From positions 13,397 to 45,396 of the forward strand of contig NZ_LWLG01000017.1 in the NCBI RefSeq assembly GCF_001652585.1: 32,000 nt of DNA, read 5' to 3'. The stretch comes from Thermosulfurimonas dismutans. Its GTDB lineage: Bacteria > Desulfobacterota > Thermodesulfobacteria > Thermodesulfobacteriales > Thermodesulfobacteriaceae. How positions within the stretch are numbered: position 1 is the first letter of the stretch; each line of letters starts with the position of its first letter. The position numbers were made by a program, and so were the translations under genes. This document shows positions 1 to 13,780 of the stretch, piece after piece. Below the pieces are notes generated by a model. That model ran no database searches and was not told the origin of the DNA. It worked only from the letters and a program-made list of their open reading frames with translations.

Positions 1-52
1 ATACTTTAGCTTCATTAATTATTTCATCTTTAAAAATTTCTTCAATTTCCAT
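1..52 (-). CDS. 5' end of a fifth cassette ORF (MEIEEIFKDEIINEAKV...), cut by the window edge
   Basis: The ATG at 52-50 lies 6 nt downstream of an AGGAGG that is fused to the attC core (GTTAGGAGG). Strand and composition match the other cassettes. Confidence 0.4.
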   Translation of the reverse strand, partial: MEIEEIFKDEIINEAKV

Positions 53-60
53 AAAAAACC

Positions 61-121
61 TCCTAACGCCTAAACTCAGCGGCCGGCGATTATCGCCGGT
101 CCGCTGAAGAGGTTTGTTATG
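61..121 (-). repeat. attC recombination site (3' end of the NYN cassette)
   Basis: Plus strand reads tcctaacgcctaaactcagcggccggcgattatcgccggtccgctgaagaggtttgttatga. On the cassette strand it ends in GTTAGGA. The inverse core overlaps the ORF stop codon. The central GGCCGGCGA/TCGCCGGTCC stem has an unpaired base. It is near-identical to the sites at 1826 and 2719. Confidence 0.85.
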
Positions 122-992
122 ATTGCCTTTGTGATTTTTTCATTTCATCTGGAAACAAAATCTCAACTGGCATATCAATATATCCCGAAGCATTCCTTTC
201 CCAACAAAGTTTTATCTGTTTAAATTGATATTCAATATATTTATCATCACTTGCAGCTTTAGGTCCAACATATTCATTATACCTGCCAAACGTTTCCCAT
301 CTAACTTTAATATTTTCTAATTCCATTGCTCCAACTTTTTTAGAAATAAACACAAATCCATCCCAATCAATTCTTAATTGATTTAAAATTCTATCATCTG
401 CTTCAGAAAAAAGTTCTGCACATTTTTCTTTAGTAAAATCATTGATATGAAATTCTGGATAATGATATTTAAATAAATCTCTATAATCTAAAAATATAGT
501 AGCATAAGCTTCATTTCTTAGCTCTATAGGATAATCATTTTTAAGAGATACTAAAAATACTTTCACTTTTCCTCTCAATTTTTTTAAAATAGGAACAAAA
601 TCTCGATCACTAGATAATAAAATTAAAATTTCTACTTCCTTTGCGTAATCCTCTATTTTACTAGAGATAGTTGTATCAACTCCTTTTTCTGAAGAACCAG
701 GAAGATCCACTATATCAACATACACTCCTATTTCAGCTTTAAGTCTTTTTAACAATAATTCTTGCTCTTTTTCAGAAAATCTTTGACTCCTAGGACCGAA
801 TTTTTTTTTAGAACACACAAATTCAACAATTTCTGCCTTTTCCTTTACATCAAAATCAGCAAGTTTTTTATTAATGATTTCTCTTAAACTTTCTAAACTT
901 AATTGTCTAGCAATATGATTTGGTTTAATTCCTAATTCAATAACACGATTAATATAATTAGGTCCATCAACAATAATCGGTATGCCTTGCAT
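117..992 (-). CDS. NYN/LabA-like (PIN-related) predicted ribonuclease with an uncharacterised C-terminal domain; integron cassette product
   Basis: The 291 aa product carries NYN hallmarks: N-terminal IIVDGPNY (Asp/Asn), central GVDTTI, and LLSSDRDFVPILKKLRGKVKVFLV. The C-terminal ~120 aa have no motif I recognise. The stop codon lies inside the attC inverse core. Confidence 0.7.
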   Translation of the reverse strand: MQGIPIIVDGPNYINRVIELGIKPNHIARQLSLESLREIINKKLADFDVKEKAEIVEFVCSKKKFGPRSQRFSEKEQELLLKRLKAEIGVYVDIVDLPGSSEKGVDTTISSKIEDYAKEVEILILLSSDRDFVPILKKLRGKVKVFLVSLKNDYPIELRNEAYATIFLDYRDLFKYHYPEFHINDFTKEKCAELFSEADDRILNQLRIDWDGFVFISKKVGAMELENIKVRWETFGRYNEYVGPKAASDDKYIEYQFKQIKLCWERNASGYIDMPVEILFPDEMKKSQRQS

Positions 993-1008
993 ATTTTTTA
1001 CCTTTACC

Positions 1009-1069
1009 TCCTAACGGCCAAATTCACTCGCCCGCCGTATGGCGGGTCGGGTGAAAAGGTTTGTTAGAT
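1009..1069 (-). repeat. attC recombination site (diverged member of the family)
   Basis: Sequence is tcctaacggccaaattcactcgcccgccgtatggcgggtcgggtgaaaaggtttgttagat. On the cassette strand it runs ATCTAAC ... GTTAGGA. TTCACTCGCCCGCC/GGCGGGTCGGGTGAA form imperfectly paired arms. The stop codon of ORF 1064-1801 sits in the inverse core. Confidence 0.8.
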
Positions 1070-1801
1070 ATTTTTTCTAATATAAAGTATCTCACTATCA
1101 CTAATTCTAGTTTTTATGTCCTCTTCTGAATAATCCAAAAGTTCTACGCATCTGTTGTAATATATTTCATACCATTCACCAAAATATTTATGAAAATCTG
1201 TTACCATTTTATCAAAGGTCAGCTGTTCAAAATTCGGGCAGTCTTCATTACCTATAACTACTTTTGCTCCACCCAACATAATTCCTTGTTGAGTAAAACC
1301 GATAAGGTGCCCACAAAAATATTTAAGGGATGTAACCTGCATTGAACAGTTATCTTCTTTTTTCTTCGGAGAAGCAAAAGCCGTATGAGCGAAAATTTTA
1401 TGTCTATATCTTCTATATTTTTTTATCGCATCTTCTCTCTGTTTTAAGATCTTTTTGTTTACTTCATCGCCAATCTTGTCATGCATATTCTTATATTCTT
1501 TTTTTAAAATATCTGTTAAATTTAAAGCAAAAACAATAAAGGAACCGATACGCCATATTTCTCTTGCTATGAAGGACTCTAATTTAGATTCTTTGACCCC
1601 AATAGCAGGAAATTTTTCTATTAATTTTTTGTTCATCTTAATATCACTTTTATAAGAATTATAAATTTCCAATAATATTCTTAAAATACTATCAATTGAA
1701 GAAAGTATATCTATTGAGGGAATAGTCATTATATAATTTTGAGAATTTCTTCTTAAAGATAGTACTAAATATGGCAAAGAACGAAATGAGTATTCTAACA
1801 T
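1064..1801 (-). CDS. HEPN-like protein (AbiU2-style R-x-K-x-x-A-H motif); integron cassette product
   Basis: The 245 aa, largely helical protein contains YRRYRHKIFAHTA, giving R133-x5-H139 with K at +2 and A at +5. This is the spacing of RNKxxAH-type HEPN RNase motifs. No other family signature was recognised. Confidence 0.5.
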   Translation of the reverse strand: MLEYSFRSLPYLVLSLRRNSQNYIMTIPSIDILSSIDSILRILLEIYNSYKSDIKMNKKLIEKFPAIGVKESKLESFIAREIWRIGSFIVFALNLTDILKKEYKNMHDKIGDEVNKKILKQREDAIKKYRRYRHKIFAHTAFASPKKKEDNCSMQVTSLKYFCGHLIGFTQQGIMLGGAKVVIGNEDCPNFEQLTFDKMVTDFHKYFGEWYEIYYNRCVELLDYSEEDIKTRISDSEILYIRKNI

Positions 1802-1825
1802 TATCCCTTCCTTTTTAGATTTATC

Positions 1826-1886
1826 ATCTAACGCCTAAACTCAGCAGCCGGCGTATACGCCGGTCCGCTGGAGCGAATTGTTAGAT
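1826..1886 (-). repeat. attC recombination site
   Basis: Sequence is atctaacgcctaaactcagcagccggcgtatacgccggtccgctggagcgaattgttagat. On the cassette strand it runs ATCTAAC ... GTTAGAT (a perfect GTTRRRY). Confidence 0.85.
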
Positions 1887-2059
1887 TATTTTCATTTTCC
1901 TGTTCTTTTTCAGAAAAAACGTCCATTATCTTCTTGTTCTCTTCCTTTTAAACCTAAAATCCTGCGAAGCAGTATTCAATTTCTTTTTTATCCTGATTCG
2001 CCCGACTCTTGAAGTGTATTTCTTACCGATTTATGCAATCAATTCTACGGACCGATCTC

Positions 2060-2707
2060 TCAATTTCTCCTTTTTGCAGAGCTGATTATTGAATTAATAT
2101 AATCGTTGATCTCTTTAATTCTTGACCCAAGTATAATATTATAGCCCTTTAGTCTTTTATCCCATACTCTTTTTGCTAAGCGAACAAAATGTAAAAAATC
2201 ATTTTTCATATCTTCTTGAAACTCTTCATCAATTATGACTCCAGAAACAGGACCAGTACCTGTGATCCGTTCTGTAAATGATTCTTTTTTATATGCAGTT
2301 TTCATATCTAAATCGTATCTTACTCCTATACCCAGCTTATCTATCTTCTGGATCCTTTCAAAAGTTTGTTTGGTACATATTCTATATTTGCCATTCGCTC
2401 TTTCTTTGCATTCTGCAATAATTTTACTTAAATTGTGACTGCATTTTCTTGCTACTATATATGCCTCTTTAGCGGTTTCGTCTTTTTTAGATAATCCTAT
2501 CAGTATTGCTTTTAATATGCACTCGAGTGCCATTCTGAGCATAATGAACTGTTTAGTCATAATAGACATGTTGTGAACAGGGAAACTTTGACTGTGATGA
2601 TATAGAGCAATCCAATCAGCTGCATCTCTGAAGAAATGGCCAAATAAAACAGCTTTTACATGTGACTCTAAGGAAAACCGTTTGCCAATCTTTTTTAATG
2701 TAGTCAT
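2060..2707 (-). CDS. Helical protein with a weak classical-HEPN-like signature; integron cassette product
   Basis: The 215 aa product contains LRMALECILKAILIGL...ARKCSHNLSKII, which resembles the a-x-e-x-aLKAlL ... tHdL-x-x-L pattern of HEPN domains. The spacing is R-x3-H, which is not canonical. The ORF stops 173 nt before its attC. Confidence 0.35.
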   Translation of the reverse strand: MTTLKKIGKRFSLESHVKAVLFGHFFRDAADWIALYHHSQSFPVHNMSIMTKQFIMLRMALECILKAILIGLSKKDETAKEAYIVARKCSHNLSKIIAECKERANGKYRICTKQTFERIQKIDKLGIGVRYDLDMKTAYKKESFTERITGTGPVSGVIIDEEFQEDMKNDFLHFVRLAKRVWDKRLKGYNIILGSRIKEINDYINSIISSAKRRN

Positions 2708-2718
2708 TTATTTATCGT

Positions 2719-2777
2719 GTCTAACGCCAAACTCAGCGGCGCCATGTAATGGCGTCCGCTGAAGAGATTTGTTAGGT
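2719..2777 (-). repeat. attC recombination site
   Basis: Sequence is gtctaacgccaaactcagcggcgccatgtaatggcgtccgctgaagagatttgttaggt. On the cassette strand it runs ACCTAAC ... GTTAGAC. The CTTCAGC arm against GCTGAG leaves an extra T, the kind of extrahelical base expected in attC. The TAA stop of ORF 2772-3614 lies in the inverse core. Confidence 0.85.
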
Positions 2778-3614
2778 CTTTTCATTAATAATCCTATTTG
2801 CAAAATAATTATCAAAAAAGTTTAAAAAGTCTCGAAGTCCCAAAATAATAGAATTAAGTAGTTTCTCTACCTCAAATCTGTCTTGAATTATTGTAACTAA
2901 GTAATGGTCTCCTCGTTCATAAAAAGAAATATCAATAGAACCAACATGAGTAACATAATCTCTTATATCGCGAACAATAAAAAACCATTCCATGTGATTT
3001 TTTATGTATTGTTTCATAGTATCATCTGAAATTTCTCCCGATCTATGTTTATCTTTGCAAATATATTTTATATAATCAGAAAAACTACAGAATTGACGAG
3101 AACTAGGACCATACAAGAAATGGAGCATAGTAGCAATTGAATCCATAATACTTCTTACATTAAATAAAAGACCAGCGATCTCTGATTTTAATGCATAAAC
3201 TTGGTCACCTATATTAAATGAAGGCTGTCCTGTTCTTGGAAGTATTTTCCGAGTTTTTTGGTAATAAACTTGGATGTCTTTAATTATTTTTTGTATCCTT
3301 TCAATATTCAAAGTTAAAGAATAAAGCTTATCAGCTATGTATTTAAAGTTAAATACATAATATTGTCCTGCTAAAAAATATTGTCGAATATATCCATTTT
3401 TAGTTTCTATATAATATCCTATATGATGAAATCTTTCCCAATATCTAGTCTTTAAAATAGCTTTTCTAAGTTGTGGAAAAGGATCTTTTAAAGCAGGTAT
3501 TGTATAACTAACTAGTTTACCCCGGGAGGGAGATAAGCTTACTCTGTAAGTATTCCTTAATCTTTCTTGTATTTTCTCTTGCGCTTGTTTAGTTTTTATA
3601 ATTTCAAAACGCAT
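2772..3614 (-). CDS. Hypothetical protein with a C-terminal HEPN-type R-x4-H motif; first (attI-proximal) cassette
   Basis: The 280 aa product contains FFIVRDIRDYVTHVGS (R218-x4-H223) in a helical C-terminal region. It lies immediately downstream of the attI core and the candidate Pc promoter. Confidence 0.4.
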   Translation of the reverse strand: MRFEIIKTKQAQEKIQERLRNTYRVSLSPSRGKLVSYTIPALKDPFPQLRKAILKTRYWERFHHIGYYIETKNGYIRQYFLAGQYYVFNFKYIADKLYSLTLNIERIQKIIKDIQVYYQKTRKILPRTGQPSFNIGDQVYALKSEIAGLLFNVRSIMDSIATMLHFLYGPSSRQFCSFSDYIKYICKDKHRSGEISDDTMKQYIKNHMEWFFIVRDIRDYVTHVGSIDISFYERGDHYLVTIIQDRFEVEKLLNSIILGLRDFLNFFDNYFANRIINEKT

Positions 3615-3679
3615 TTTTATTTATCTAACATTACTTTTATACTTTCTTAGATTTAAAGCCTATTGCCAATATTTTTGGA

Positions 3680-3709
3680 ATGATAGCTTTTTACAATAAA
3701 AAATGTCAA
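3680..3709 (-). promoter_or_regulatory. Candidate cassette promoter Pc
   Basis: The minus strand reads TTGACA (3709-3704), an 18 nt spacer, then TATCAT (3685-3680). It points into the cassette array about 65 nt upstream of the first cassette ATG. Confidence 0.45.
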
Positions 3710-3826
3710 ACATTAAGATTAAATCTTATTACGAATCTCTTGAGATAATAGAGGATAAAAATGTTTATTTTTATTTTTATGTCTTAAAATTTCTTAAAAT
3801 CTAACTTTCTGGATAATACACAAAAT

Positions 3827-3855
3827 TTGCCTAATTTTGCAAAGTAAAATAAGAT
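3827..3855 (+). promoter_or_regulatory. Candidate intI promoter
   Basis: TTGCCT, a 17 nt spacer, then TAAGAT, about 40 nt upstream of the ATG at 3895. Both hexamers are weak. Confidence 0.25.
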
Positions 3856-3894
3856 GGCTTGCAGATAATATCTTTGCTGGCAAAAAGGATCAAA

Positions 3895-4962
3895 ATGGAA
3901 TCGCAAGAAAAGTTGATGGAAAAATTTGGGGCCTTTCTCAAGAAGGTGGAAAAGCGAGAAAGGGTGGTCCCCTTCATGGTGCGGTGGGTGGTGCAGGCCC
4001 TGCAGGAATATGAACTGCCCCCCGGACAAAAGTTAGCCCCCGCTCAGAAAAAACAATTTCTCTTTAAATTATCCCAAAAATACGAGCCTTGGCAAGTAGA
4101 ACAGGCTGATCGGGCCTTAAAGCTATATGAGTATTTCCTGAACACCTTATCCCAAAAATCTCCGACAGAGAGGACAGAGGCCGAATGGGCGGAGGCCTTG
4201 GAGAAGGCCAGAGAGGTCCTCAGGCGCAAACGGTACTCCTACCGCACCGAAAAATCTTACCTTGACTGGATAAGATGCCTGGCCGAATATCTGGACTACA
4301 AATCACCGGAAGAAGTTTCCGGCGAGGATTTTCAGGATTTTCTCACCCATCTTGCCGTGGAAAGAAACGTAGCCCCTTCCACCCAGAATCAGGCTTTAAA
4401 TGCCCTGGTGTTCTTTTATCGCCATGTGCTCGAAAAAGAAATTGATCCCTATATTGAGGCCGTAAAGGCCCGGGAGAGAAGAAGGCTTCCGGTGGTGCTA
4501 AGCCGGGAAGAGGTGGAGGCCGTGCTCTCGGTCTCGGAACTTGAGGAAACCTATTATCTAATCTGTGCCCTCATGTATGGAGGGGGCTTGAGAGTAAGTG
4601 AGACGGTAAGACTCCGGGTAAAAGATCTGGATTTTGAACGAGGCTTGATCACGGTATTTTCCGGCAAGGGAGACAAAGACCGGGTAACCGTAGATCCGCG
4701 GACTGAGACCGTGCGTCGGCATCACATCCATCCCAGTGCGGTGCAACGGGCCTTCAAGAAGGCGCTACGGAAGGCCAGAGTGGAAAAACCCGCTACGGTG
4801 CATTCCCTGCGGCACAGCTTCGCTACCCACCTCCTTGAGGACGGCTACGATATTCGTACCATTCAGGAACTTCTGGGGCACAAGAGTCTGAGCACCACTA
4901 TGATTTACACTCATATCGTGGGACGGCGGGTCACCGGGGTGGTGAGTCCGCTTGACCGCTAA
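3895..4962 (+). CDS. intI: Integron integrase IntI (tyrosine recombinase) with an N-terminal extension and an apparent in-frame loss of the IntI-specific additional domain
   Basis: IntI-type motifs are present: YSYRTEKSYLDWIRC, APSTQNQALNALVFFY, LRVSETVRLRVKDLDFERG, VRRHHIHPSAVQRAFKKA, HSLRHSFATHLLEDGYDIRTIQELLGH and TMIYTH. The ATG at 3895 (AAAGGA RBS) is preferred over the TTG at 3859. GKGDKDRVT is followed directly by VDPRTETVRRHH, whereas IntI1 has about 60 residues between these two blocks. Confidence 0.8.
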   Translation: MESQEKLMEKFGAFLKKVEKRERVVPFMVRWVVQALQEYELPPGQKLAPAQKKQFLFKLSQKYEPWQVEQADRALKLYEYFLNTLSQKSPTERTEAEWAEALEKAREVLRRKRYSYRTEKSYLDWIRCLAEYLDYKSPEEVSGEDFQDFLTHLAVERNVAPSTQNQALNALVFFYRHVLEKEIDPYIEAVKARERRRLPVVLSREEVEAVLSVSELEETYYLICALMYGGGLRVSETVRLRVKDLDFERGLITVFSGKGDKDRVTVDPRTETVRRHHIHPSAVQRAFKKALRKARVEKPATVHSLRHSFATHLLEDGYDIRTIQELLGHKSLSTTMIYTHIVGRRVTGVVSPLDR

Positions 4963-4978
4963 TTTAAAGGAGAAAAGT

Positions 4979-5305
4979 ATGCGTATACTAGCCACGATTC
5001 TGATGGTGATCGGGTATCTTTTAATAGGGGCCCATTTTCTGCGGGCTGGGCATTCGTTGGTGGCCCTGGGGCTTGCCTTTGCGCCGGCTCTTCTCTTTCT
5101 CAAACACCGGATGGTGCGCCTGATCCTTTCCGCAGGCCTGGGGCTGGCCCTTATTGAATGGGGCCGGACTTTCGTTTTCCTGAAACGGATCTATGAGGCT
5201 CACGGCCTTCCTTTCAGCAAGTCTGGTTTCATCCTGGGAGGAGTAATGGCCGTTACCTTTCTGGCCGTAGCCCTCAACCTGCGGGAGGATCTGCGGAACA
5301 AATGA
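4979..5305 (+). CDS. Small integral membrane protein (3-4 predicted TM helices), function unknown
   Basis: The ATG at 4979 follows an AAAGGAG RBS. The sequence is hydrophobic (ILATILMVIGYLLIGA..., LVALGLAFAPALLFL..., GFILGGVMAVTFLAVAL). Its stop overlaps the ATG of the downstream ABC remnant (ATGA). Confidence 0.5.
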   Translation: MRILATILMVIGYLLIGAHFLRAGHSLVALGLAFAPALLFLKHRMVRLILSAGLGLALIEWGRTFVFLKRIYEAHGLPFSKSGFILGGVMAVTFLAVALNLREDLRNK

Positions 5306-5576
5306 TCCGGGTCCGCCATCTGCACTATCGTTACCCGGAAGGAACTCGGGAGGCCCTTTCCGGGATCTCGCTTACGGTAAATCCGGGAGAGGTGCTGCTT
5401 CTTTCCGTCCTCTGCTGACTTATTCCTTCACAGGCCGGAGGTGAGTTTTCCGGAGAGGTGAAGGTTCTGGGGCGAAAGGCTCCCTTTTCTCCCGCGGAGG
5501 TCTTTCCCGAGGTGGCCTTCGGGCTTGAAAACCTGGGGTATCCGGAAAGGGAACTCGAAAATAAACTAAGCATCAA
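5302..5576 (+). pseudogene. Degraded ABC-transporter ATPase (EcfA/CbiO-like) remnant
   Basis: MIRVRHLHYRYPEGTREALSGISLTVNPGEVLLL matches an ABC ATPase N-terminus, but the frame stops before a Walker A motif. A second frame continues with GEVKVLGRKA...EVAFGLENLGYPERELE. The Walker A and Q-loop regions, and everything after about residue 100, are missing. Confidence 0.6.
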
Positions 5577-5899
5577 CCCAAGCTATCGCCAACAAAAGTG
5601 GCGGATAGTCGTCTACTCCCAACTTTAAGCTCAAATGCAAACGCAGGGACATGAACTATAAGGGAGTAAAGAGCATCCTTTAGTAAACGCGAATCGGCCT
5701 CTACAGAAAGAAAAACGCCTAGAGGTAAGGAAAGAGACGAATTGGCAGCAGAAGAAACAAAACCTGTAAGACGGGTCTTGAAACCATCTGCTATTTCCAC
5801 TAATTCAAACTCGGGCATACGAACCTTTCCTACTACCTGCTTAGTATCCTTGTCTATTATATCAATAACCATATAAAAGGCCTCAAAGGATTCAAGCAC
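5573..5899 (-). CDS. Hypothetical protein (orphan ORF, no motif recognised)
   Basis: This 108 aa ORF abuts the truncation point of the ABC pseudogene. It has no convincing RBS and no recognisable family signature. Confidence 0.25.
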   Translation of the reverse strand: MLESFEAFYMVIDIIDKDTKQVVGKVRMPEFELVEIADGFKTRLTGFVSSAANSSLSLPLGVFLSVEADSRLLKDALYSLIVHVPAFAFELKVGSRRLSATFVGDSLG

Positions 5900-6091
5900 T
5901 GGCTCTACCGAAGGCTTCCTTTTTTCCAGGTGGTTTATCCAGAAAGCTTGGCAAAGGAAATAGAAGAGGATCTTTCTTTTTTCCTAAGTAAGCTAAAGAA
6001 AGATGATCTCCAATGATTTAATTGCCTATATCAAACAAATCCTTTCGGACACCTAAATTAAGGCGGAGGACTGAAACCCTTGATCCTCAAG

Positions 6092-6164
6092 TGGGCCGGG
6101 CAGGATTCGAACCTGCGACTCCTGGCTTAAAAGGCCAGTACTCTGCCAGCTGAGTTACCGGCCC
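6092..6164 (-). tRNA. tRNA-Lys: tRNA-Lys (anticodon UUU)
   Basis: The minus strand folds as a 73 nt cloverleaf: GGGCCGG TA ACTC AGCTGGCA GAGT A CTGGC CTTTTAA GCCAG GAGTC GCAGG TTCGAAT CCTGC CCGGCCC A. The anticodon loop is CU-UUU-AA. CCA is not encoded. Confidence 0.9.
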
Positions 6165-6215
6165 GGTTATGGGCTTAAATTACCCTTGAACTCCAGGGCT
6201 GTCAAGAATTATTAA

Positions 6216-7165
6216 GAGGGTGTTCGAAAAAACTAGATATTGACGTTGGGGGAGCCTAGAATTAACTCCCCCAACATGAGAAGAAGCAAACTGCGTCTCA
6301 AGACCATCTTCAAAATAACCCGAGCCATAATAAATGAAAAGCCCCTGGCCTTTCGAGGTCGCCCAAAAACTTATTCCGATGCCTTCATTATCTCTATCTT
6401 CCTCTACCAAACCCTAAAAAATCTATCCTACCGAGAAGCACTAGAAGAGGCCTTCGATATATTGGGACGAAGACCCGCCCTTTCTACCTACCACTACCGA
6501 GTCTCAAAATTCCCTAAACAATCCCTGAAAATCCTTCTCCAAGAATTGGCCCGAAAACTTCTAGCAAAAGAACATCACCTCTTTTCCTTTATCTCTGATG
6601 GCACCGGCTTTAGTTATCATGACCTCTACCCTTTAAAATTCTTAAGAGGCTCAGAAATCAGAAAAGTAAAAGCCCATATAAGAGTGGTCCCCATAATCGG
6701 AGTAACTTCATCCGGAAAAAGAATCGTCATTACCGCTGAAACCGGAGGTCCCTATGCCAGCGAGGTAAAACTTCTCCTGGAAGCTCTGGCAGAAATTGAT
6801 CCAGTCACTTTTAAAGCCGAATGTTTTATAGCAGATAAATGCTATGACAGTCTCAAGGTCATGGAAAAACTTGTAGAGCTTGGATTAAAACCGGCCATAA
6901 AAGTAAAAGAAACCTTCAGGCAGAAGGTAAAACATCCTCTGCGGAAAGATTCCAGAATTTTCTGGGAGAAATGGGGCCGAAATAGATATCTGATTGAAAG
7001 TTTGTTTGGTACGGTAAAACTGAAAATAGGCTCGCATTTTAGGGTAAGAAAGGAAGAAATAGCCCAGAAGAGAGGACTGGCCGCTTTTGTGCTCTATAAT
7101 ATGTACCTCCTGGCTACCCTCCTCTATATCTCGTTGCTCCTTAAAAACTATTTTCGAACACTCTC
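6216..7165 (+). mobile_element. Insertion sequence (IS4/IS5 superfamily, DDE transposase) with terminal inverted repeats and an 11 bp target-site duplication
   Basis: IRL is GAGGGTGTTCGAAAA (6216-6230). IRR is the reverse complement of TTTTCGAACACTCTC (7151-7165), matching 14/15. The direct repeat AGAATTATTAA lies at 6205-6215 and 7166-7176, immediately outside the IRs. Confidence 0.8.
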
Positions 7166-7196
7166 AGAATTATTAAAAGCCTTTTCATCCCAATAA
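6276..7196 (+). CDS. DDE transposase (PF01609-like, IS4/IS5 superfamily)
   Basis: The DDE triad candidates are SDGTGFSY, FIADKCYDS and NRYLIESLFGTVK, the last fitting the R-x3-E-x6-K signature. The ATG at 6276 is preferred over the TTG at 6240. The reading frame runs through IRR and stops in flanking DNA. Confidence 0.75.
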   Translation: MRRSKLRLKTIFKITRAIINEKPLAFRGRPKTYSDAFIISIFLYQTLKNLSYREALEEAFDILGRRPALSTYHYRVSKFPKQSLKILLQELARKLLAKEHHLFSFISDGTGFSYHDLYPLKFLRGSEIRKVKAHIRVVPIIGVTSSGKRIVITAETGGPYASEVKLLLEALAEIDPVTFKAECFIADKCYDSLKVMEKLVELGLKPAIKVKETFRQKVKHPLRKDSRIFWEKWGRNRYLIESLFGTVKLKIGSHFRVRKEEIAQKRGLAAFVLYNMYLLATLLYISLLLKNYFRTLSELLKAFSSQ

Positions 7197-7218
7197 TAAC
7201 CAAGGCAATTTAGTTTCC

Positions 7219-7247
7219 TTGACAAGCAACTCCAGCAATGTTAATAA
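7219..7247 (+). promoter_or_regulatory. Candidate sigma70-type promoter of the TonB-dependent receptor gene
   Basis: TTGACA (7219-7224), a 17 nt spacer, then TAATAA (7242-7247), about 45 nt upstream of the ATG at 7292. Confidence 0.45.
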
Positions 7248-7254
7248 TTCGTGC

Positions 7255-7273
7255 TACGAATATAAAATTCGTA
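7255..7273 (+). promoter_or_regulatory. Perfect 7-5-7 inverted repeat TACGAAT-ATAAA-ATTCGTA (candidate operator or 5'-UTR hairpin)
   Basis: The repeat is read directly from the sequence. It lies between the candidate -10 and the AAGGAGG RBS of the receptor gene. Confidence 0.4.
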
Positions 7274-7291
7274 ATACTAAGGAGGTCGGAG

Positions 7292-9220
7292 ATGCCGAAA
7301 AGTTTTTCATGGTTTCTTCTGGTAGTCAGTATCTGGCTAGCTATGTCCTCCGGAGCCTTGGCCGGTGAAAAGTCCACGGAGGAGAGCACCTGGGGTCTCG
7401 GGGAGGTAGTAATAACAGCCACCAAAACCCCGCACCCCCTGAAAGATGTCCCAGTAGAGACGGTGGTAATAACCAAGGAGGAAATTGAACGTTCCAGCGC
7501 TCAGACCGTAAGTGACCTCTTGCGTTACGTTCCCGGGATATTTGTCAGGGACGAAGATGCCCCCGGCATTTCGAGTTGGCGGGCAACTATAAGGGGCCTG
7601 AGCTTCAACGATGGCTACGGACTCATCCTGATTGATGGAGAACGGGTAAGAGGCGAGGGCATGGGGGATTCCGGGATAGGACTTAACCAGATACCGCCTC
7701 AGATGATCGAAAAGATAGAGGTGGTCAAGGGCCCAAGTTCGGTCCTCTACGGAAGCGACGCCCTTGCGGGTGTAGTAAACATCATCACCAAACCTACTCC
7801 CGACAGAACCATCTATGGTTTCGAGGGAGGTTACGGGAGTTACTGGACGAACATGGAGTATCTCTACTGGGGAACGAAGGCCGCCCCTTGGGGCGTGCTC
7901 TTTCAGGCCTCCCGTGAGGAATCAGAGATGGGACAGTACGGTGTAAGGACCTATCGAGACGAAACTTATAAAAGAGAAAGTTTCTTATCTAACTTCTCTT
8001 ATGAGGTAAATCCAAATCTCGTCCTAGGACTCAAGTTTACGGCCCAGGAAGAGGAACGGAAGATCGAATACCTGACCCAGGACACCGTAGTAAACAGAAA
8101 GGGCTACAAATATCGCATCGCCCCTCACCTCAAAATGATCTTCGATGACGATTCGGAATTGATTGTGAAGGGATATTACTATGACTGGAAATTCGATGCA
8201 GACTCCTACGGCACGGATCCGTATCCCTACGCCCTCTATAAAGGAGATATGTACTATCGAGACCTTGAGGTCCGCTATACCAAACCCGTAAAAACGAGTC
8301 ATCTGGTTACCCTGGGTGCCGAGTATCGGCAAGAGGAATTGGATTACACCTTCTCACAAAGAAAACTTGATATCACTAGTGCCTACTTCCAGGATGAAAT
8401 CGAATTCCATATGGGGTTTCCCATGGAGGTGGTGGCAGGTGCCCGTCTGGATCATCATTCCCGGTATGGCACGGAGTTTTGTCCCAAAGTAAGTCTCCTG
8501 GTGAAACTGGATGAGGCTACCAGAGTAAGGGCTTCCGTAGGAAGAGGCTTCAAATCTCCCACCATCAGACAGGCCTTCTATACCGAACCCTATCCCCACG
8601 GAGATTATTTCTATGTTTCAAACCCGGACCTTGAGGCCGAAACCTCTTGGGGTTATTCCGTGGGAATTGAACGAAATATCGGCGATATCTTCTGGGGGAA
8701 TATCACTTTTTTCAGGAACGACATCGAAGATATGATTATAAGATATTACGACTATAAAGACATCAATAACGACGGCGTTGTCGAAAAAATAAGAACTTTT
8801 AGGAATGCTAAGGAAGCCTACACGCAGGGTATAGAAGTAGCCCTGAAGTTAGCCTTAATTAAAGATGTCTTATGGTTTAATATAGCTTATACCTATTTAG
8901 ATACGGAAGACGAAGATACCGGTAAAGAACTCACCTTTATCCCTGACCATAATCTGGCAGGCCATATAGTTTTCAAGCATAAACCTCTGGGAATATCCTT
9001 TGATATCGGTATCCAATATGTCAGTGAAATGTATACCAATCCTACTAATACTGAGCAAACCAGCAGTTATTCCGTTGTGGATGTGAAACTCGTCAAGACA
9101 ATCGGCAAGCACGCCTCCTTGTCCGTGGAAGGCAATAACATTTTTGACTCTGATTATGGTGAACCAGATCGTGAATGGTGGGGAGCCACTTGGCTGGCCC
9201 GCTTTAAGATGGATTTCTAA
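7292..9220 (+). CDS. TonB-dependent outer-membrane receptor
   Basis: The ATG follows an AAGGAGG RBS. A signal peptide (SFSWFLLVVSIWLAMSSGALA) is followed by a plug domain (EVVITATKTPHPLKDVPVETVVITKEEIERSSAQTVSDLLRYVPGI, IDGERV, VKGPSSVLYGSDALAGVVNIITK). The beta-barrel ends in a terminal ...RFKMDF. Confidence 0.9.
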   Translation: MPKSFSWFLLVVSIWLAMSSGALAGEKSTEESTWGLGEVVITATKTPHPLKDVPVETVVITKEEIERSSAQTVSDLLRYVPGIFVRDEDAPGISSWRATIRGLSFNDGYGLILIDGERVRGEGMGDSGIGLNQIPPQMIEKIEVVKGPSSVLYGSDALAGVVNIITKPTPDRTIYGFEGGYGSYWTNMEYLYWGTKAAPWGVLFQASREESEMGQYGVRTYRDETYKRESFLSNFSYEVNPNLVLGLKFTAQEEERKIEYLTQDTVVNRKGYKYRIAPHLKMIFDDDSELIVKGYYYDWKFDADSYGTDPYPYALYKGDMYYRDLEVRYTKPVKTSHLVTLGAEYRQEELDYTFSQRKLDITSAYFQDEIEFHMGFPMEVVAGARLDHHSRYGTEFCPKVSLLVKLDEATRVRASVGRGFKSPTIRQAFYTEPYPHGDYFYVSNPDLEAETSWGYSVGIERNIGDIFWGNITFFRNDIEDMIIRYYDYKDINNDGVVEKIRTFRNAKEAYTQGIEVALKLALIKDVLWFNIAYTYLDTEDEDTGKELTFIPDHNLAGHIVFKHKPLGISFDIGIQYVSEMYTNPTNTEQTSSYSVVDVKLVKTIGKHASLSVEGNNIFDSDYGEPDREWWGATWLARFKMDF

Positions 9221-9246
9221 ATCCTAATCGGTAAAGGAGGAAAAAC

Positions 9247-9717
9247 ATGAAAAAATTATTAATAGTACCCTTTAGTTTTATGTGTCTTTTAGTTTTCAGT
9301 AGTTTAGTCAAAGCTCACGATCTTTGGCTCCAAGCCCAAAATTATTATCTCGATTCTATGGAAAACATTGAAATAAAAGTTGTGTTTGGTCATAACTTTC
9401 CTTATGAAGATATTTTAATACCAAAAAAAGATATAAGTGAATTTTCATATGTAACTCCTGAAGGAGTTAAAAAATCGGTTACAAATATTTGGGAAAGCAT
9501 AAAGGGTAACAGGAAAAGAGAATACAAAAAAGGAAGTTTGATAGGAGAGATTGATTTATCTAAATGCACAAAATGCAAAGAGGGGACTTATATTATTGCT
9601 GCTTCTAGAGTTAGAAAAGGAGACAAGTTTCATGTACCTTCAGGAAAATATGGTAAAGCTATAATTATAGTAGGCCAAAAAGGTACGCAAAAAATAACTA
9701 AAGGGGGTGTCTTATGA
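9247..9717 (+). CDS. Secreted DUF4198/CbiK(COG5266)-like protein, short form (N-terminal half only)
   Basis: A signal peptide ends ...SLVKA|HDLWLQ. The VFGHNFP and GTYIIAA motifs resemble the neighbouring full-length paralog. It is 156 aa and low in GC. The family assignment comes from memory of the AH-x-W-L N-terminus typical of these Ni/Co-associated periplasmic proteins. Confidence 0.45.
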   Translation: MKKLLIVPFSFMCLLVFSSLVKAHDLWLQAQNYYLDSMENIEIKVVFGHNFPYEDILIPKKDISEFSYVTPEGVKKSVTNIWESIKGNRKREYKKGSLIGEIDLSKCTKCKEGTYIIAASRVRKGDKFHVPSGKYGKAIIIVGQKGTQKITKGGVL

Positions 9718-10514
9718 AGATAAAGAAAAAATTTGTGATTGGTATTTTGACAAGTCTTTTTCTTCTGCTGGCCTTTATTCCTAAAACCTATGCTCACTTT
9801 CTGTGGTTAAACGTTGATGATTATACCCCTAAAAAAGGACAAGAGGTCCGCATCACCCTCGGTTGGGGACACAAGTTCCCCGAAACACCAACCCCTCCTA
9901 GAGAGGAGATGGTAAAGAAACTCTCCCTCTTTTTGATAGATCCTGATGGTCAAAAAATTCCTCTTAATATTCCCGTAAAAGACGGAAAACCACAGCCCGT
10001 TAGAGTAAAGGTAACCAAAAACGGCATTTATTTAGCCGTAGCTATCGCCAAACACTTTGTTTCCAAAACCACGGAAGGTTATTTCTATAAATCCAGAGAC
10101 GAGTTAAAAGACAAAGAAATTATTTATTCCAAGTGGTCTGAAACTACTGCGATCGCTATTATAAGTGTGGGTAAATCTAAAAAATTTGATACTCCTAACA
10201 ATCTAGACTCTAGCTTTTACATCCTTCCTCTGGTTAATCCCTCGGTTTTAAAAGAGGGAGAAACCTTTCAGGTAAAGGCAATATTTTACGGTAAACCCTA
10301 TCGCACCTGGGTGTATGCTACTTATGCGGGATTCAGTAAATTTAAAGATACCTATGCTTGGGCAACCAAAACAGACAAGAGGGGCATAGCTAATATTAAA
10401 ATTTTGAAGAGTGGGGTAAACTGGTTGCTTAAAAGCGAGGTTGAGAAACACTATCCAGATCCAAAGAAAGCCGATATAGCAAGTTACAAATGTTCCGTAA
10501 CATTTGGATTCTAG
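9714..10514 (+). CDS. Secreted DUF4198/CbiK(COG5266)-like periplasmic protein (putative Ni/Co uptake component)
   Basis: The start overlaps the upstream stop (ATGA). A signal peptide ends ...PKTYA|HFLWLN, followed by LGWGHKFPE. It is 266 aa, and the C-terminal half is beta-rich. Confidence 0.5.
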   Translation: MKIKKKFVIGILTSLFLLLAFIPKTYAHFLWLNVDDYTPKKGQEVRITLGWGHKFPETPTPPREEMVKKLSLFLIDPDGQKIPLNIPVKDGKPQPVRVKVTKNGIYLAVAIAKHFVSKTTEGYFYKSRDELKDKEIIYSKWSETTAIAIISVGKSKKFDTPNNLDSSFYILPLVNPSVLKEGETFQVKAIFYGKPYRTWVYATYAGFSKFKDTYAWATKTDKRGIANIKILKSGVNWLLKSEVEKHYPDPKKADIASYKCSVTFGF

Positions 10515-11005
10515 TTTTGATTTTATTTTTATTTCTAGCTTCGCGAGAAGTCCTTGCTCACGGAGTTGAAGGAGAAATTGAATATCTCCGTGGGGCGGTT
10601 GTTGTTACCGCCTGGTATGACACCGGAGAACCGATGAGTTATGCAAAAGTAGAGGTTTATGCCCCTGATAGTAATATCAAATTTCAATCTGGAAGAACAG
10701 ACCGGAATGGTCGTATCGCTTTCGTACCCGATGTACCCGGAAAGTGGCGAGTAGTGATCTCGGATGAACTCGGACACAAGCTCGATCTTTCCGCAAATAT
10801 AACAAGTATTTCTCCGGAGAAACCGGTAGAAAATACTCAAATCACCGAAGCTAGAAAAAGCACATTATTATCGCGCAAAATAAGTATTATTATAGGACTT
10901 TTGTTAATATTCGGCCTCTTCGGCTGGATAAAGGAAATTAAGCAATTTCGTCAAAAGGTTTACGGCGGAGACGATGAGGTAGGGCCAGGCGTTCGGCCAC
11001 CCTGA
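10490..11005 (+). CDS. Secreted beta-sandwich (carboxypeptidase-regulatory/transthyretin-like) protein with a C-terminal TM anchor
   Basis: A signal peptide ends ...EVLA|HGVEGE, followed by GRTDRNGRIAFVPDVPGKWRVV, a typical CarboxypepD_reg-like strand pattern. The hydrophobic anchor is IIIGLLLIFGLFGW. The last 68 nt overlap the convergent chlI-like gene. Confidence 0.4.
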   Translation: MFRNIWILVLILFLFLASREVLAHGVEGEIEYLRGAVVVTAWYDTGEPMSYAKVEVYAPDSNIKFQSGRTDRNGRIAFVPDVPGKWRVVISDELGHKLDLSANITSISPEKPVENTQITEARKSTLLSRKISIIIGLLLIFGLFGWIKEIKQFRQKVYGGDDEVGPGVRPP

Positions 11006-11924
11006 GATCCTCCTCGGTGACCTCGGTCCTCCCGGAAAAGGCCGCGTGAGCCCTAGCCGCACGGGCCATGGTAAGATCGGCTCGGTGCCCGTCAACCCCC
11101 AGCGTTATGGTCTTTTTGGCGATGGCATAAAGCATCTCCTCTGGAAGCCTTACCTCCGGAAGCCTCTCCTTGGCTTCCACGATACGGGCGACCAAGGCTT
11201 CGGTTTCACTCTGAAATTTTTCTTTGAACCCTTCAGGATCCCGCGCAAATTCCTCCCAGCGCTCCATGATGAGCACCCTGGCCTTTGGGTCTTTTAAGCC
11301 CTCGACCGTCACGCAGAGACCGAAACGATCAAGGAGTTGGGGACGAAGTTCTCCCTCTTCTGGATTCATGGTACCCACCAGGACGAAACGGGCGGCGTGA
11401 GAGAAACTTACCCCTTCCCTTTCCACGTAATTCATCCCCATAGCCGCCACATCGAGGAGGGTATCCACCAAGTGATCCGGTAAAAGATTTACCTCGTCCA
11501 CATAGAGAAAACCCCGGTGGGCGGCGGCCAGAAGGCCGGGCTCAAAGCGTCTCTCTCCCCGGGTTAGGGCCGCTTCGAGGTCAATGCTTCCCACCAGGCG
11601 ATCCTCGGTGGCTGAGAGCGGAAGCTCCACCACCCGCACCTTTCGCCTCGTGCGGGGAAGCCGGCCTTCCTTCTCAAGGCGCTCTTTACAGAAAGGACAG
11701 AGGCTTTCGGGTGAGTCCGGATCGCAGGAAAAAGGACAACCCTCCACTACCTCTATCTCCGGAAGGATGTCCGCTAGGGCCCGTACCACCGTAGATTTAC
11801 CGGTGCCCTTTTCACCCCGAATGAGGACTCCCCCGATTCCGGGGTCAATCACGTTAAGAAGCAGAGCTAACTTCATGTCCTCCTGACCTACGATGGCGGT
11901 AAAAGGAAAAAGGTATCTCTTCAT
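10938..11924 (-). CDS. chlI: Class I chelatase AAA+ ATPase subunit (ChlI/BchI-type)
   Basis: The sequence contains FPFTAIVGQEDMKLALLLNVIDPGIGGVLIRGEKGTGKST (Walker A), FLYVDEVNLL (Walker B) and GTMNPEEGELRPQLLDRF. There is a Cys-rich insert, GCPFSCDPDSPESLCPFC. The start overlaps the upstream stop by ATGA. Confidence 0.9.
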   Translation of the reverse strand: MKRYLFPFTAIVGQEDMKLALLLNVIDPGIGGVLIRGEKGTGKSTVVRALADILPEIEVVEGCPFSCDPDSPESLCPFCKERLEKEGRLPRTRRKVRVVELPLSATEDRLVGSIDLEAALTRGERRFEPGLLAAAHRGFLYVDEVNLLPDHLVDTLLDVAAMGMNYVEREGVSFSHAARFVLVGTMNPEEGELRPQLLDRFGLCVTVEGLKDPKARVLIMERWEEFARDPEGFKEKFQSETEALVARIVEAKERLPEVRLPEEMLYAIAKKTITLGVDGHRADLTMARAARAHAAFSGRTEVTEEDLRVAERLALPHRLRRKPFDEIA

Positions 11925-13780
11925 GGTTCACCTCTCGCAATTTCGTAAAGTCTATCAGCCCGGAGGGCTTCAGGGGTAAAGTAACGGGCAGAAAGGAGTT
12001 CGGCGAGCCTCCGGGCCATTTCAAGTCTTAAGCCCCCTGTTTCGGTATCTACCACCACGAATTCGGTCTGCGGAAAGTTCGCCGAAAGTCTTCCGGCCAA
12101 GACCTCGATTTCCTCCCGCGGTGGTTTCCCGGTAAGGCTAACATTACCTCGGCCGTCAGTGATTAGAATGACGGTAGTGAGGAGCCGAGAATCTTTTCGA
12201 CGTATCTCTTCAAGCAATCGGTAAAGTTCGCTAAGGGCGGCGGGAAGCGGGGTTGAGCCTCCTACCGCAAGCTCCGAAAGGACCCTTGCGGCCCGATCCA
12301 CAGAATTGGTAGGCGGGAGAACAATCCGGGCCTTATCCCCGCGGAACACCATAAGGGCCACTCGGTCCCGCCTCTGATAGGCCGAAAGGAGGAGACTCAT
12401 AATAGCACCCTTGGTTTCCCTCATGCGGGCCTCGGCGGCCATGGAACCCGAGCCGTCCACACAGAAGACCACGAGGCGAGAGCTTCTCACCAGCTTGAGC
12501 TTGGCCCGCAGATCCTCCTTACGGATTACAAACCTTCCGGGACCACCACCGCGGATCTTCTGTTTTAAGGCCGCCGAAAGAAAGGTGGGGATAAGGGCTA
12601 TCTCCCCCTCCCCCTTATAGGGAACAGCCCTTACGAAATATCCCCTTCCGGTAAGAGAAAATCCCTTAGATCTCTTACCGAAAATCTTGACCTGCTGTGG
12701 CCGTTCGCGATGACCGCTAAACTCCCTCACCCGGAAGATCTCTCCCACGGAAAAGACTTTGTCCTCGCCCTCTTCGGGCCTTACCTCCTCGGGTTCGGCA
12801 AATTTTGTATCGGTACGACTGTTCTCTCCTCTATCTTGCCCCTCCGTCGGCGTTTCGTGAGAACGACCTCTAGGGGCCTCTTTTTCCCTCGGGGAGGAAT
12901 TCTCTTCAGGAGGCTTGCGGTCTTCTTTGTTTTCTTCCCCGGGCTTACTTTCGGGCTGAGGTTTAGGTCTGCCCCGTGATCTCTCCCGTCTCCGGTGGGC
13001 GAGAACCAGTTCGGCCACGGACTCCACATCCTCGGGGGTGGCCTCGGAGCGGCCCTTTAGGGCCGCGTGGGCCCGAACGGCCTCTAAAAGAAAAATTTCC
13101 GCCCGGTGACCAGCCGCGGCGGCCTCAAGCGCAAGCCGTGCTATGAGGGCACGAAGGTAGCCAGAAATCCTGACCCCGGGAAGCAAGCTTCTGGCCTTTA
13201 AGATTTCCTCACGGAGCCCCCTTTCCTCCTCCGCAAAGGTCTCCTCAAAACCCTCGGGATCCATCTCCCAGAAGAGGCGTCGTCTCAGGATCTCAACCCG
13301 CAGGCTCGGGTCCCTTTCGGCAGAGACCTCCACATAGAGACCGAAACGGTCAAGGAGTTGCGGTGAAAGGGGACCCTCCTCGGGATTCATGGAACCGATC
13401 AAGAGGAATCGCCCGGACTCCGAGGCGGAAAGCAAGAGGGAAACGATGGATGGAGGCAAAAGATTTATCTCGTCCACATAAAGCACTCCGCCCTCGGCCT
13501 GAGCGAAAAGGCCAGGGACAAAGACCCTTCGACCGTGCTTTAAGGCCTCCTCCAGGCAAAGATGACCGGTCAATCGTTCCTCCGTTACTGAAAGGGGAAG
13601 ATTCACAAAAGGGCCTTCGATGAGGCGAGCTAAGGCCCGGCCTGCGGTGGACTTGCCCGTGCCCTTTTCTCCGGAAAGGAGCACCCCCGAAAGCCGCGGG
13701 TTTATCGCGCAGAGCATAAGGGCAAGCTTCATTTCTTCCTGCCCTACAATGGCCGAAAGGGGATAGAGCCTCTTGGTCAT
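11921..13780 (-). CDS. chlD: Class I chelatase bridging subunit (ChlD/BchD-type: AAA-like N-domain, acidic/Pro-rich linker, C-terminal vWA domain)
   Basis: The N-terminal region is AAA-like (LSGEKGTGKST, LYVDEINLL, GSMNPEEGPLSPQLLDRF). A charged linker follows (RRRERSRGRPKPQPESKPGEENKEDRKPPEE...). The vWA MIDAS motif is VFCVDGSGSM. The preferred start at 13780 is an ATGA overlap with the cobN stop, preceded by GGAGAG 8 nt upstream. The longest ORF begins at 13831. Confidence 0.88.
   Translation of the reverse strand: MTKRLYPLSAIVGQEEMKLALMLCAINPRLSGVLLSGEKGTGKSTAGRALARLIEGPFVNLPLSVTEERLTGHLCLEEALKHGRRVFVPGLFAQAEGGVLYVDEINLLPPSIVSLLLSASESGRFLLIGSMNPEEGPLSPQLLDRFGLYVEVSAERDPSLRVEILRRRLFWEMDPEGFEETFAEEERGLREEILKARSLLPGVRISGYLRALIARLALEAAAAGHRAEIFLLEAVRAHAALKGRSEATPEDVESVAELVLAHRRRERSRGRPKPQPESKPGEENKEDRKPPEENSSPREKEAPRGRSHETPTEGQDRGENSRTDTKFAEPEEVRPEEGEDKVFSVGEIFRVREFSGHRERPQQVKIFGKRSKGFSLTGRGYFVRAVPYKGEGEIALIPTFLSAALKQKIRGGGPGRFVIRKEDLRAKLKLVRSSRLVVFCVDGSGSMAAEARMRETKGAIMSLLLSAYQRRDRVALMVFRGDKARIVLPPTNSVDRAARVLSELAVGGSTPLPAALSELYRLLEEIRRKDSRLLTTVILITDGRGNVSLTGKPPREEIEVLAGRLSANFPQTEFVVVDTETGGLRLEMARRLAELLSARYFTPEALRADRLYEIARGEP

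Follow-up and report, generated by a model that had tools for sequence, protein, structure and literature searches.

A chromosomal integron led by four single-gene cassettes

We analysed a stretch of 32,000 nucleotides (nt) of the Thermosulfurimonas dismutans genome (contig NZ_LWLG01000017.1, positions 13,397 to 45,396), referred to here as the window, and identified within it a chromosomal integron whose four leading cassettes are true integron cassettes. Each of the four carries a single open reading frame (ORF) for a protein with a predicted or putative ribonuclease (RNase) fold, namely an NYN domain in ORF1 (cassette 4) and HEPN-like domains in ORF2 (cassette 3), ORF3 (cassette 2) and ORF4 (cassette 1). 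We take the host to be a deep-sea thermophile belonging to the Thermodesulfobacteriota, with growth at about 74 °C. A first-pass annotation of this DNA had described the same four ORFs together with their coordinates, lengths and motifs, all of which proved exact and lie on the minus strand (Table 1), and had regarded them as the cargo of complete integron cassettes, a view borne out by the integrase gene, the attI crossover and four attC sites.

The integrase gene is divergent from the four minus-strand cassettes. The best PDB match of its product is VchIntIA (2a3v, E = 1.6e-59), with integrase residues 114-277 aligned to chain residues 6-167 and residues 276-367 to chain residues 228-319, and the catalytic C-terminal boxes are intact. 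Homology to IntI begins at about amino acid (aa) 114, and the TTG at 3859, if it is the start, would give an N-terminal extension of about 113 aa. Within attI, some 65 nt upstream of the ATG of the first cassette and thus in the expected place for Pc, a candidate Pc promoter could drive the cassettes. Nothing beyond its likeness to the consensus speaks for this element, and shuffled controls contain such sites in numbers no lower than those observed.

The four attC sites are mutually 81 % identical and follow each ORF in a single orientation, with R'' (..TAAC) and R' (GTTAG..) cores flanking the hairpin. On the cassette strand, each site taken as single-stranded DNA forms an imperfect hairpin carrying a bulged base, with z scores of -3.3 to -6.5 against shuffled controls. 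A strict regular expression (RYYYAAC...GTTRRRY) missed two of the sites in the window, so a relaxed pattern was used with a covariance model built from the window's own four sites, which themselves score 68-87 bits against it. Cassettes 1 to 4 are 904, 893, 817 and 948 bp long. Their ORFs begin 10-30 nt past the crossover point and end inside or beside the attC, the exception being cassette 2, where a spacer separates the two. When window positions 1-3858 were compared with 5000-32000, the GC content of the cassette ORFs was 0.28-0.33 (0.13-0.27 at third codon positions, GC3), that of the attI region 0.22 and that of the attC sites 0.53-0.56, against 0.52 in the rest of the window. By composition the cassettes look foreign, yet they carry near-identical attC sites of host type, and homologs of their genes occur elsewhere in GC-richer contexts.

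An ORF scan found one gene and no partner in each of the first four cassettes. None has room for a second gene, the sole free stretch being the 174-nt untranslated spacer of cassette 2, within which the only ORFs are of 23-44 aa and no Rfam family was matched. Over positions 1-4000 Rfam gave nothing credible, with a lone sub-threshold speF match overlapping ORF1 and its attC, and domain scans detected no MNT or other antitoxin domain nearby. The absence of an obvious partner antitoxin ORF noted in the first-pass annotation is thus upheld, and the adjacent partner gene in cassette or operon that would mark a type II toxin-antitoxin system was not found. The GenBank protein numbering skips OAQ20036 between ORF2 (OAQ20035) and ORF3 (OAQ20037), which suggests that the depositors had a small coding sequence there. 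The possibility that the three HEPN-like proteins are one repeated family was rejected, as hhalign comparisons between the families gave probabilities below 1 %. The three families are unrelated at the profile level, and the array, as judged from sequence, is not a set of paralogues.

Table 1 Features of the T. dismutans integron, its cassette genes and its surroundings. Positions are those of the window except where a relative's locus (L012, L013) is named
Feature	Position	Strand	Remarks
ORF4, cassette 1, 280 aa	2772..3614	-	HEPN region ~aa 120-245; N-terminal ~120 aa without a family
ORF4 R218-D-Y-V-T-H223, Rx4H motif	2946..2963	-	RDYVTH, aa 218-223
ORF3, cassette 2, 215 aa	2060..2707	-	HEPN core ~aa 13-150 and C-terminal two-helix extension
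ORF3 R130-Y131-D-L-D134	2306..2320	-	Acidic residue replaces canonical motif His
ORF3 H91, alternative conserved histidine	2435..2437	-	81/83 family members
ORF2, cassette 3, 245 aa	1064..1801	-	Probable AbiU2-like HEPN, sub-threshold
ORF2 R133-H-K-I-F-A-H139, Rx5H motif	1385..1405	-	End of third long helix
ORF1, cassette 4, 291 aa	117-992	-	Motifs DGPNY, GVDTTI and SSDRDFVPIL present
ORF1 NYN/LabA-like nuclease domain, aa 1 to ~170	483..992	-	PF01936, 34.2 bits against a cut-off of 24.2
ORF1 C-terminal module, aa 185-291 (~105 aa)	120..440	-	No Pfam match; separable
Stand-alone relatives of the ORF1 module	L012 2971-3273; L013 2959-3264		
intI, integron integrase gene	3859..4962	+	TIGR02249, 310.7 bits against a cut-off of 265
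Candidate Pc promoter, TTGACA-18 nt-TATCAT	3680..3709	-	11/12 consensus; best sigma-70-like site of the region
attI crossover core GTTAGAT	3623..3629 (read 3629-3623)	-	Cassette 1 starts after G
attC of cassette 1, 58 nt	2719..2776	-	68.1 bits; z -6.1; R'' overlaps the ORF4 stop codon
attC of cassette 2, 60 nt	1826..1885	-	85.3 bits (covariance model)
attC of cassette 3, 60 nt	1009..1068	-	83.3 bits; compensatory stem changes
attC of cassette 4, 61 nt	61..121	-	86.9 bits; z -6.5; R'' overlaps the ORF1 stop codon
Untranslated spacer, ORF3 stop to attC, 174 nt	1886..2059	-	GC 0.345; unique to cassette 2
Start of fifth cassette ORF (ATG 52-50)	1..52	-	Cassette begins at 66 and continues beyond the window
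DDE transposase	6240-7196		Integron flank
TonB-dependent receptor	7238-9220		Integron flank
Two DUF4198 proteins	9247-10514		Lower GC, 0.37-0.40
CobN/ChlI/ChlD-type chelatase operon	10938-17727	-	

Domain content of the cassette proteins

The N-terminal part of ORF1 had been read in the first pass as an NYN/LabA nuclease domain fused to a C-terminal domain of no family, and both halves of that description hold. The PF01936 match spans aa 30-167 and exceeds the Pfam cut-off, the PADLOC NYN match is weak, and both NCBI and UniRef name the protein an NYN domain-containing protein. The metal site of NYN domains is formed by four conserved acidic residues (PMC5499597), and four such positions, read from its own translation, are held by ORF1 as D9 (VDGPN), D105 (GVD), and D130 and D132 (SSDRDF). 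We therefore predict an NYN fold with little reservation. No relevant PDB sequence was found with phmmer, and pattern scans of genomes and metagenomes found no full-length close relatives. The C-terminal module, which Pfam does not recognise, also occurs on its own: it matches a hypothetical protein of 100 aa from the Dolichospermum phage Dfl-JY45 (XAI97248.1; 34 % identity over 89 aa, pairwise E = 8e-15) and an ORF of 101 aa, left without annotation, on a megaplasmid of Burkholderia sp. YI23. The module copies have in common the pattern QLR..G..Y/F.S..VG....RxET....N.YVG..AA.D.

ORF4 itself gave no PF18730 match at E ≤ 1, and Pfam, NCBIfam, PADLOC and PHROGs returned nothing above threshold. 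Its homologs number at least 80, with identities of 36-47 %, and the HEPN assignment of the first pass, made from the RDYVTH motif, is supported through this family. Eleven of 36 homologs match HEPN_Cthe2314 (PF18730) at E ≤ 1 and eight match HEPN_Apea; one homolog (P0031) scores 27.7 bits against PF18730, above the curated cut-off of 27.1, over the motif-bearing region aa 146-241, while four others score 14.6-23.4 and fall below the cut-off. H223 is present in all 36, D219 and Y220 in 35 each, and position 218 is R in 29, H in six and W in one. Because one homolog passes the cut-off, the R/H motif is conserved and UniRef names ORF4 a Cthe-2314-like HEPN domain-containing protein, ORF4 is in all likelihood an outlying member of the known HEPN family PF18730. 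The family profile had no match among PDB sequences.

For ORF3, direct scans of Pfam, NCBIfam, PADLOC and PHROGs gave no match. An exhaustive profile search collected 132 representative clusters of relatives, mostly of about 210 aa, 83 of them at E ≤ 1e-10. In the alignment of these 83, K52, E62, K66 and Y131 are invariant, D28 and R130 are retained in 82 and L65 in 76, and position 134, where the motif histidine would be expected, is D or E in 67. The LKAIL (aa 65-69) and SHNL (aa 90-93) motifs are present, the latter containing the conserved H91. This arrangement agrees with the HEPN-T variant, whose motif histidine is replaced by an acidic residue and which has a conserved histidine elsewhere (Table 1 in PMC3710099). 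PF05168 was the top-ranked Pfam family and was matched by five of the 83 relatives (best E = 9.8e-5). The AlphaFold (AF2) model is all-helical, with a predicted local distance difference test (pLDDT) score of 78 and a predicted template modelling (pTM) score of 0.78, and the Foldseek matches of highest probability are HEPN structures, including the sacsin HEPN domain (3o10, probability 0.93), AF_0298 (2hsb, 0.90), ST0689 (1wol, 0.69) and the HepT toxins 7bxo and 6m6u. The family profile met nothing relevant among PDB sequences, and one pattern-based scan for ORF3 relatives found none. What the first pass had called a weaker classical-HEPN-like pattern is thereby strengthened by the conserved E-x-x-L-K, H and R-Y, and ORF3 is probably a divergent classical HEPN of the HEPN-T type with a C-terminal two-helix extension.

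A further candidate reading of ORF3, as a membrane protein, was rejected. Residues 54-72 form the sole 19-mer of the four proteins with a hydrophobicity above 1.6, but the invariant E62 and K66 lie within this stretch, which the model shows as one of the helices of the bundle. No signal-peptide-like N-termini were seen, and the first-pass view that the proteins are cytoplasmic is reasonable.

The ORF2 family is the smallest, with only 10 detectable homologs, among all of which R133, K135, F137, A138 and H139 are conserved, with E81 in nine. Conservation of the R and H residues, which the first-pass annotation had proposed to examine among homologs, is therefore complete in the ORF2 family, and in the ORF4 family complete for H223 and 29 of 36 for R218. 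With K66 of ORF3 invariant and its H91 nearly so, the motifs quoted in the first pass are not chance occurrences. Weak matches to HEPN_AbiU2 (PF18734) were given by seven of the 10 homologs and to HEPN_DZIP3 (PF18738) by three, the best at E = 0.038. The family also has an invariant REIWRIGSFIVFALN helix and a beta-hairpin N-terminus of its own. In HEPN domains the Rx4-6H motif lies where helix 3 ends, and an acidic residue in helix 2 (PMC3710099), and the ORF2 AlphaFold (AF2) model (pLDDT 77) agrees with this layout, as helix 127-136 ends in the motif followed by a loop and E81 falls in the second helix (71-110). Among PDB sequences phmmer with ORF2 found nothing relevant, and the family profile had no match. 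The first pass had seen an Abi-type HEPN motif here; the motif stands as an invariant, the AbiU2 matches of the homologs are all sub-threshold, and taken together we lean slightly towards an AbiU2-like HEPN.

Genomic context of relatives

Relatives of ORF2 and ORF3 recur in cassettes, and those of ORF4 in defence or mobile islands at three of six loci; as in T. dismutans, the homologs are single genes in their cassettes or islands. Hosts of the ORF2 family are metagenome-assembled genomes of Syntrophales, Dehalococcoidales, Planctomycetota, Polyangiaceae and Parcubacteria. At locus L006, from a Syntrophales genome (JBAQLR010000150.1), an ORF2 homolog (41 % identity) is followed directly by an attC-like site, and positions 2396-8545 hold at least six attC-like sites, all on one strand, with an IS91 transposase and an HNH gene nearby. 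L006 is therefore another cassette array, and within the 12.6 kb examined no integrase was recognised. One of its attC sites has the inner boxes CAGCGGA / CCGCTGA in common with the attC sites of T. dismutans. At L020 a long attC-like hairpin follows the gene neighbouring the ORF2 homolog, which is probably also in a cassette context. The closest ORF3 homolog (L016, 65 % identity) has an attC-like element starting at its stop codon. At L005 an ORF3 homolog adjoins a subtilase and a PEP-CTERM protein; a multi-gene defence system made up of these three genes was considered and rejected.

Six ORF4-family contexts were examined, three of them defence or mobile islands and three ordinary chromosomal sites. 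An ORF4-family gene adjoins a Pfam-confirmed AbiU2-HEPN gene at L001, an ORF4 homolog adjoins Mrr and a helicase-methyltransferase at L014, and another adjoins a TIR protein at L015. At L001 (6001-7583) the AbiU2-HEPN gene follows the ORF4-family gene after 60 nt on the same strand, within an island with transposases and a serine recombinase. The pair may form a two-HEPN module; an HEPN family, Bxe_C0808, has been listed as 'in operon with AbiU2' (Anantharaman et al., PMC3710099). L004 (5372-7377) and L023 (1-5849) share a recurring neighbourhood in which HSP20 or GroES/GroEL genes stand together with those for an iron permease and a TetR regulator. The clade to which these two loci belong is the largest among the ORF4 homologs, with proteins of about 276-282 aa, and its chaperone-adjacent position hints at a role linked to stress rather than to defence.

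In T. dismutans, the integron is set among ordinary chromosomal genes (6240-17727; Table 1).

Proposed function and alternative explanations

We consider the best explanation, with a probability of roughly 0.55, to be that the four cassettes encode stand-alone RNases, latent effectors in conflict or defence. Their HEPN domains would build a composite, metal-independent active site from R and H on dimerising, as has been established across the superfamily (PMC3710099), while catalysis by the NYN domain would rely on four aspartates with a metal ion. The additional parts of each protein, that is the N-terminus of ORF4, the C-terminal helices of ORF3, the beta elements of ORF2 and the C-terminal module of ORF1, may serve in sensing or autoinhibition. 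The enzyme would be released from its inactive state by a trigger, for instance stress or infection by a phage, and once released would cut cellular or invader RNA, leading to a stop of translation and growth arrest in the form of abortive infection or dormancy. A function specifically in defence or abortive infection is a more tentative proposal, to which we would give somewhat less than even odds; its support comes from the analogy to cassettes that have been tested and from the gene neighbourhoods at half of the ORF4-family loci examined.

Several observations weigh against the latent-effector reading. Bacterial NYN/LabA (PF01936) proteins have no demonstrated nuclease or defence role. ORF2 itself scores 13.5 bits against a PF18734 cut-off of 26.8, and a match of its family to a genuine AbiU2 protein was rejected, as hhalign aligned the motif only, at a probability of 0.3 %; its model is of low confidence at residues 139-190, and a Foldseek search of that model against PDB and BFVD gave no HEPN match, only unspecific helical ones. 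The Foldseek matches of ORF3 are all weak, none being better than E = 0.2 and the E-values lying at 0.37 or weaker. Its catalysis is uncertain because the canonical motif histidine is absent, and some HEPN domains of the PF05168 type, such as that of human sacsin, are thought to be non-catalytic (PMC3710099). Three of the ORF4-family loci (L004 and L023, beside chaperone genes, and L024) are ordinary chromosomal sites, no attC sites were found near the ORF4-family loci examined, and viral contigs yielded no relatives of the ORF2 and ORF4 families. Finally, chain residues 168-227 of VchIntIA have no counterpart in the T. dismutans integrase, an in-frame loss of about 60 aa that includes the integron-specific additional domain, which lies between patches II and III and contacts extrahelical attC bases. 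The integrase is probably recombination-defective, as judged from its alignment, and because it lacks this domain the array may be frozen, a fossil.

On a rival account some or all of the four genes are non-catalytic or decaying cargo in such a frozen array, their products being helical or PIN-like scaffolds that bind RNA, nucleotides or proteins, or having no function at present; in that case the R...H motif of ORF2 would be no mark of an HEPN active site. The internal loss in the integrase, the missing motif histidine of ORF3, the want of a supra-threshold family or HEPN fold match for ORF2 and of detectable close relatives for ORF1 all fit it, as does a GC3 of 0.13-0.27 in a genome of 52 % GC, which suggests foreign, poorly adapted genes. 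We nevertheless regard this account as quite improbable, since none of the four ORFs is disrupted, every family-invariant residue is retained in T. dismutans, the attC sites are intact and structured, and the homologs of ORF2, ORF3 and ORF4, at 37-66 % identity with conserved cores, point to purifying selection. The same proteins might instead be RNases of stress response or RNA metabolism, and not anti-phage effectors, that tune translation or shut it down when conditions are harsh, or process particular RNAs, and travel as cassettes by chance. A stress role was proposed for integron HEPN cassettes in 2013 (PMC3710099), the NYN/LabA family is tied to regulation and to tRNA and rRNA processing contexts, and the chaperone and iron permease neighbourhoods of the largest ORF4 clade, the non-defence site L024 and the subtilase and PEP-CTERM neighbours at L005 are all in keeping with it. 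The AbiU2, Mrr and TIR neighbours of three ORF4-family genes are not, however, and both the patchy spread over unrelated phyla and the mobility of cassettes fit conflict genes better than housekeeping ones. Tested HEPN and PIN-like cassettes, moreover, protect against phage, and we hold this explanation to be unlikely.

Chromosomal integrons commonly hold toxin-antitoxin cassettes, and in HEPN-MNT pairs the toxin is the HEPN protein; the four proteins could also be toxins of addiction modules that stabilise the array, with an antitoxin that went unrecognised because it is a small RNA, a micro-ORF or a gene elsewhere. The spacer of cassette 2 and the small coding sequence hinted at by the skipped OAQ20036 would offer a place for it. 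There is no room for a protein partner, however, nor an antitoxin domain nearby or an Rfam RNA, and the homologs are likewise single genes in cassettes or islands; as no partner exists, we regard an addiction role as highly improbable. Returning to latent RNase effectors, a bolder version can be put forward, in which ORF2 and ORF3 would represent two unnamed HEPN clades that move mainly as cassettes between distant phyla, with hosts that include Thermodesulfobacteriota and Syntrophales, ORF1 would be a new single-protein abortive-infection enzyme with the cyanophage-shared module serving as a phage-sensing or autoinhibitory switch of the NYN domain, and the two clades and ORF1 would form, together with ORF4, an antitoxin-free 'RNase bank' of a thermophile, its effectors activated by a trigger. 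This version is speculative and on balance rather unlikely.

Novelty and relation to known systems

The first-pass annotation had considered the proteins undescribed and of no nameable family, which was overstated, since databases already name ORF1 as an NYN and ORF4 as a Cthe-2314-like HEPN protein. Nor are HEPN integron cassettes new in themselves. A family of them, for which one structure has been solved (PDB 3jrt), was listed in 2013 and suggested to act as RNases (Anantharaman et al., PMC3710099). In work of 2025-2026, phage resistance has been reported for single-gene cassettes of the AbiV family (brcN) and of PIN-like type in mobile integrons (10.1101/2024.07.02.601719), and the HEPN-AbiU2 cassette HNPBCG_15845 of V. 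mimicus confers resistance to T4 and T7 (10.64898/2026.03.17.712381). That integrons store small phage-defence cassettes, many of them with a single gene, is well documented. The new findings are modest: ORF2 and ORF3 appear to belong to two divergent HEPN-like families that are found as cassettes in phyla unrelated to each other and that carry neither name nor annotation, although public data hold representative clusters of both, about 10 for ORF2 and about 130 for ORF3; the uncharacterised ORF1 module is shared with a cyanophage; and all four leading cassettes of a thermophile integron carry predicted RNase folds.

If the proposed function is true, the idea of a defence bank, so far held for Vibrio and for mobile integrons of clinical origin, would come to include a deep-sea thermophile, and the cassettes would supply four compact, probably thermostable RNase effectors. 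The pairing of an NYN domain with a module carried by a cyanophage is a hint of sensor or mimic logic. The value is incremental: HEPN diversity becomes better annotated and defence screens gain new candidates, but no long-standing question is opened.

Cthe_2314, AbiU2 and HEPN-T are named HEPN families (PMC3710099), against which the three HEPN-like proteins can be compared. The ORF4 family has the same C-terminal HEPN region and Rx4H motif as the Cthe_2314-like proteins (PF18730), but differs in the additional N-terminal ~120 aa and in that most homologs are sub-threshold, as befits an outlying clade; and whereas the 2013 survey found no conserved context for PF18730 (PMC3710099), we observed defence-island and integron contexts. 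ORF3 resembles the HEPN-T/PF05168 proteins (sacsin, AF_0298 and ST0689, and the MNT-associated members) in the E-x-x-L-K helix, the histidine before helix 3 and the R-Y, and is unlike them in having no direct Pfam match and no MNT partner, in its length (about 210 aa as opposed to about 120-140 aa) and in its two extra helices. With AbiU2 (PF18734), ORF2 shares an RNKxxAH-type motif, R-[NDH]-K-x-x-A-H, where helix 3 ends, and a stand-alone protein of about 220-250 aa, although it scores far under the cut-off, the profile-profile comparison is not significant and the REIWRIGSFIVFALN helix is its own. The ORF1 domain is a member of NYN/LabA (PF01936, COG1432), with an unnamed module as C-terminal partner in place of the usual OST-HTH/LOTUS, and ORF1 is, like the phage-protective PIN-superfamily cassette Brc24 'Cosus', a single-gene cassette of PIN-like type.

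The nearest parallels are the integron HEPN cassettes 3jrt, HNPBCG_15845 and brcN, which like the HEPN-like cassettes of T. dismutans are single-gene and encode stand-alone HEPN-type proteins with no antitoxin. These are abortive or RNase systems by proposal or by test, whereas those of T. dismutans belong to other HEPN families and are known from sequence, and the hosts of the tested HEPN cassettes are gammaproteobacterial, whereas T. dismutans is a thermophilic member of the Thermodesulfobacteriota. Integrons are already known to store small genes for defence or stress; the four cassettes fit this role and do not constitute a new kind of system.

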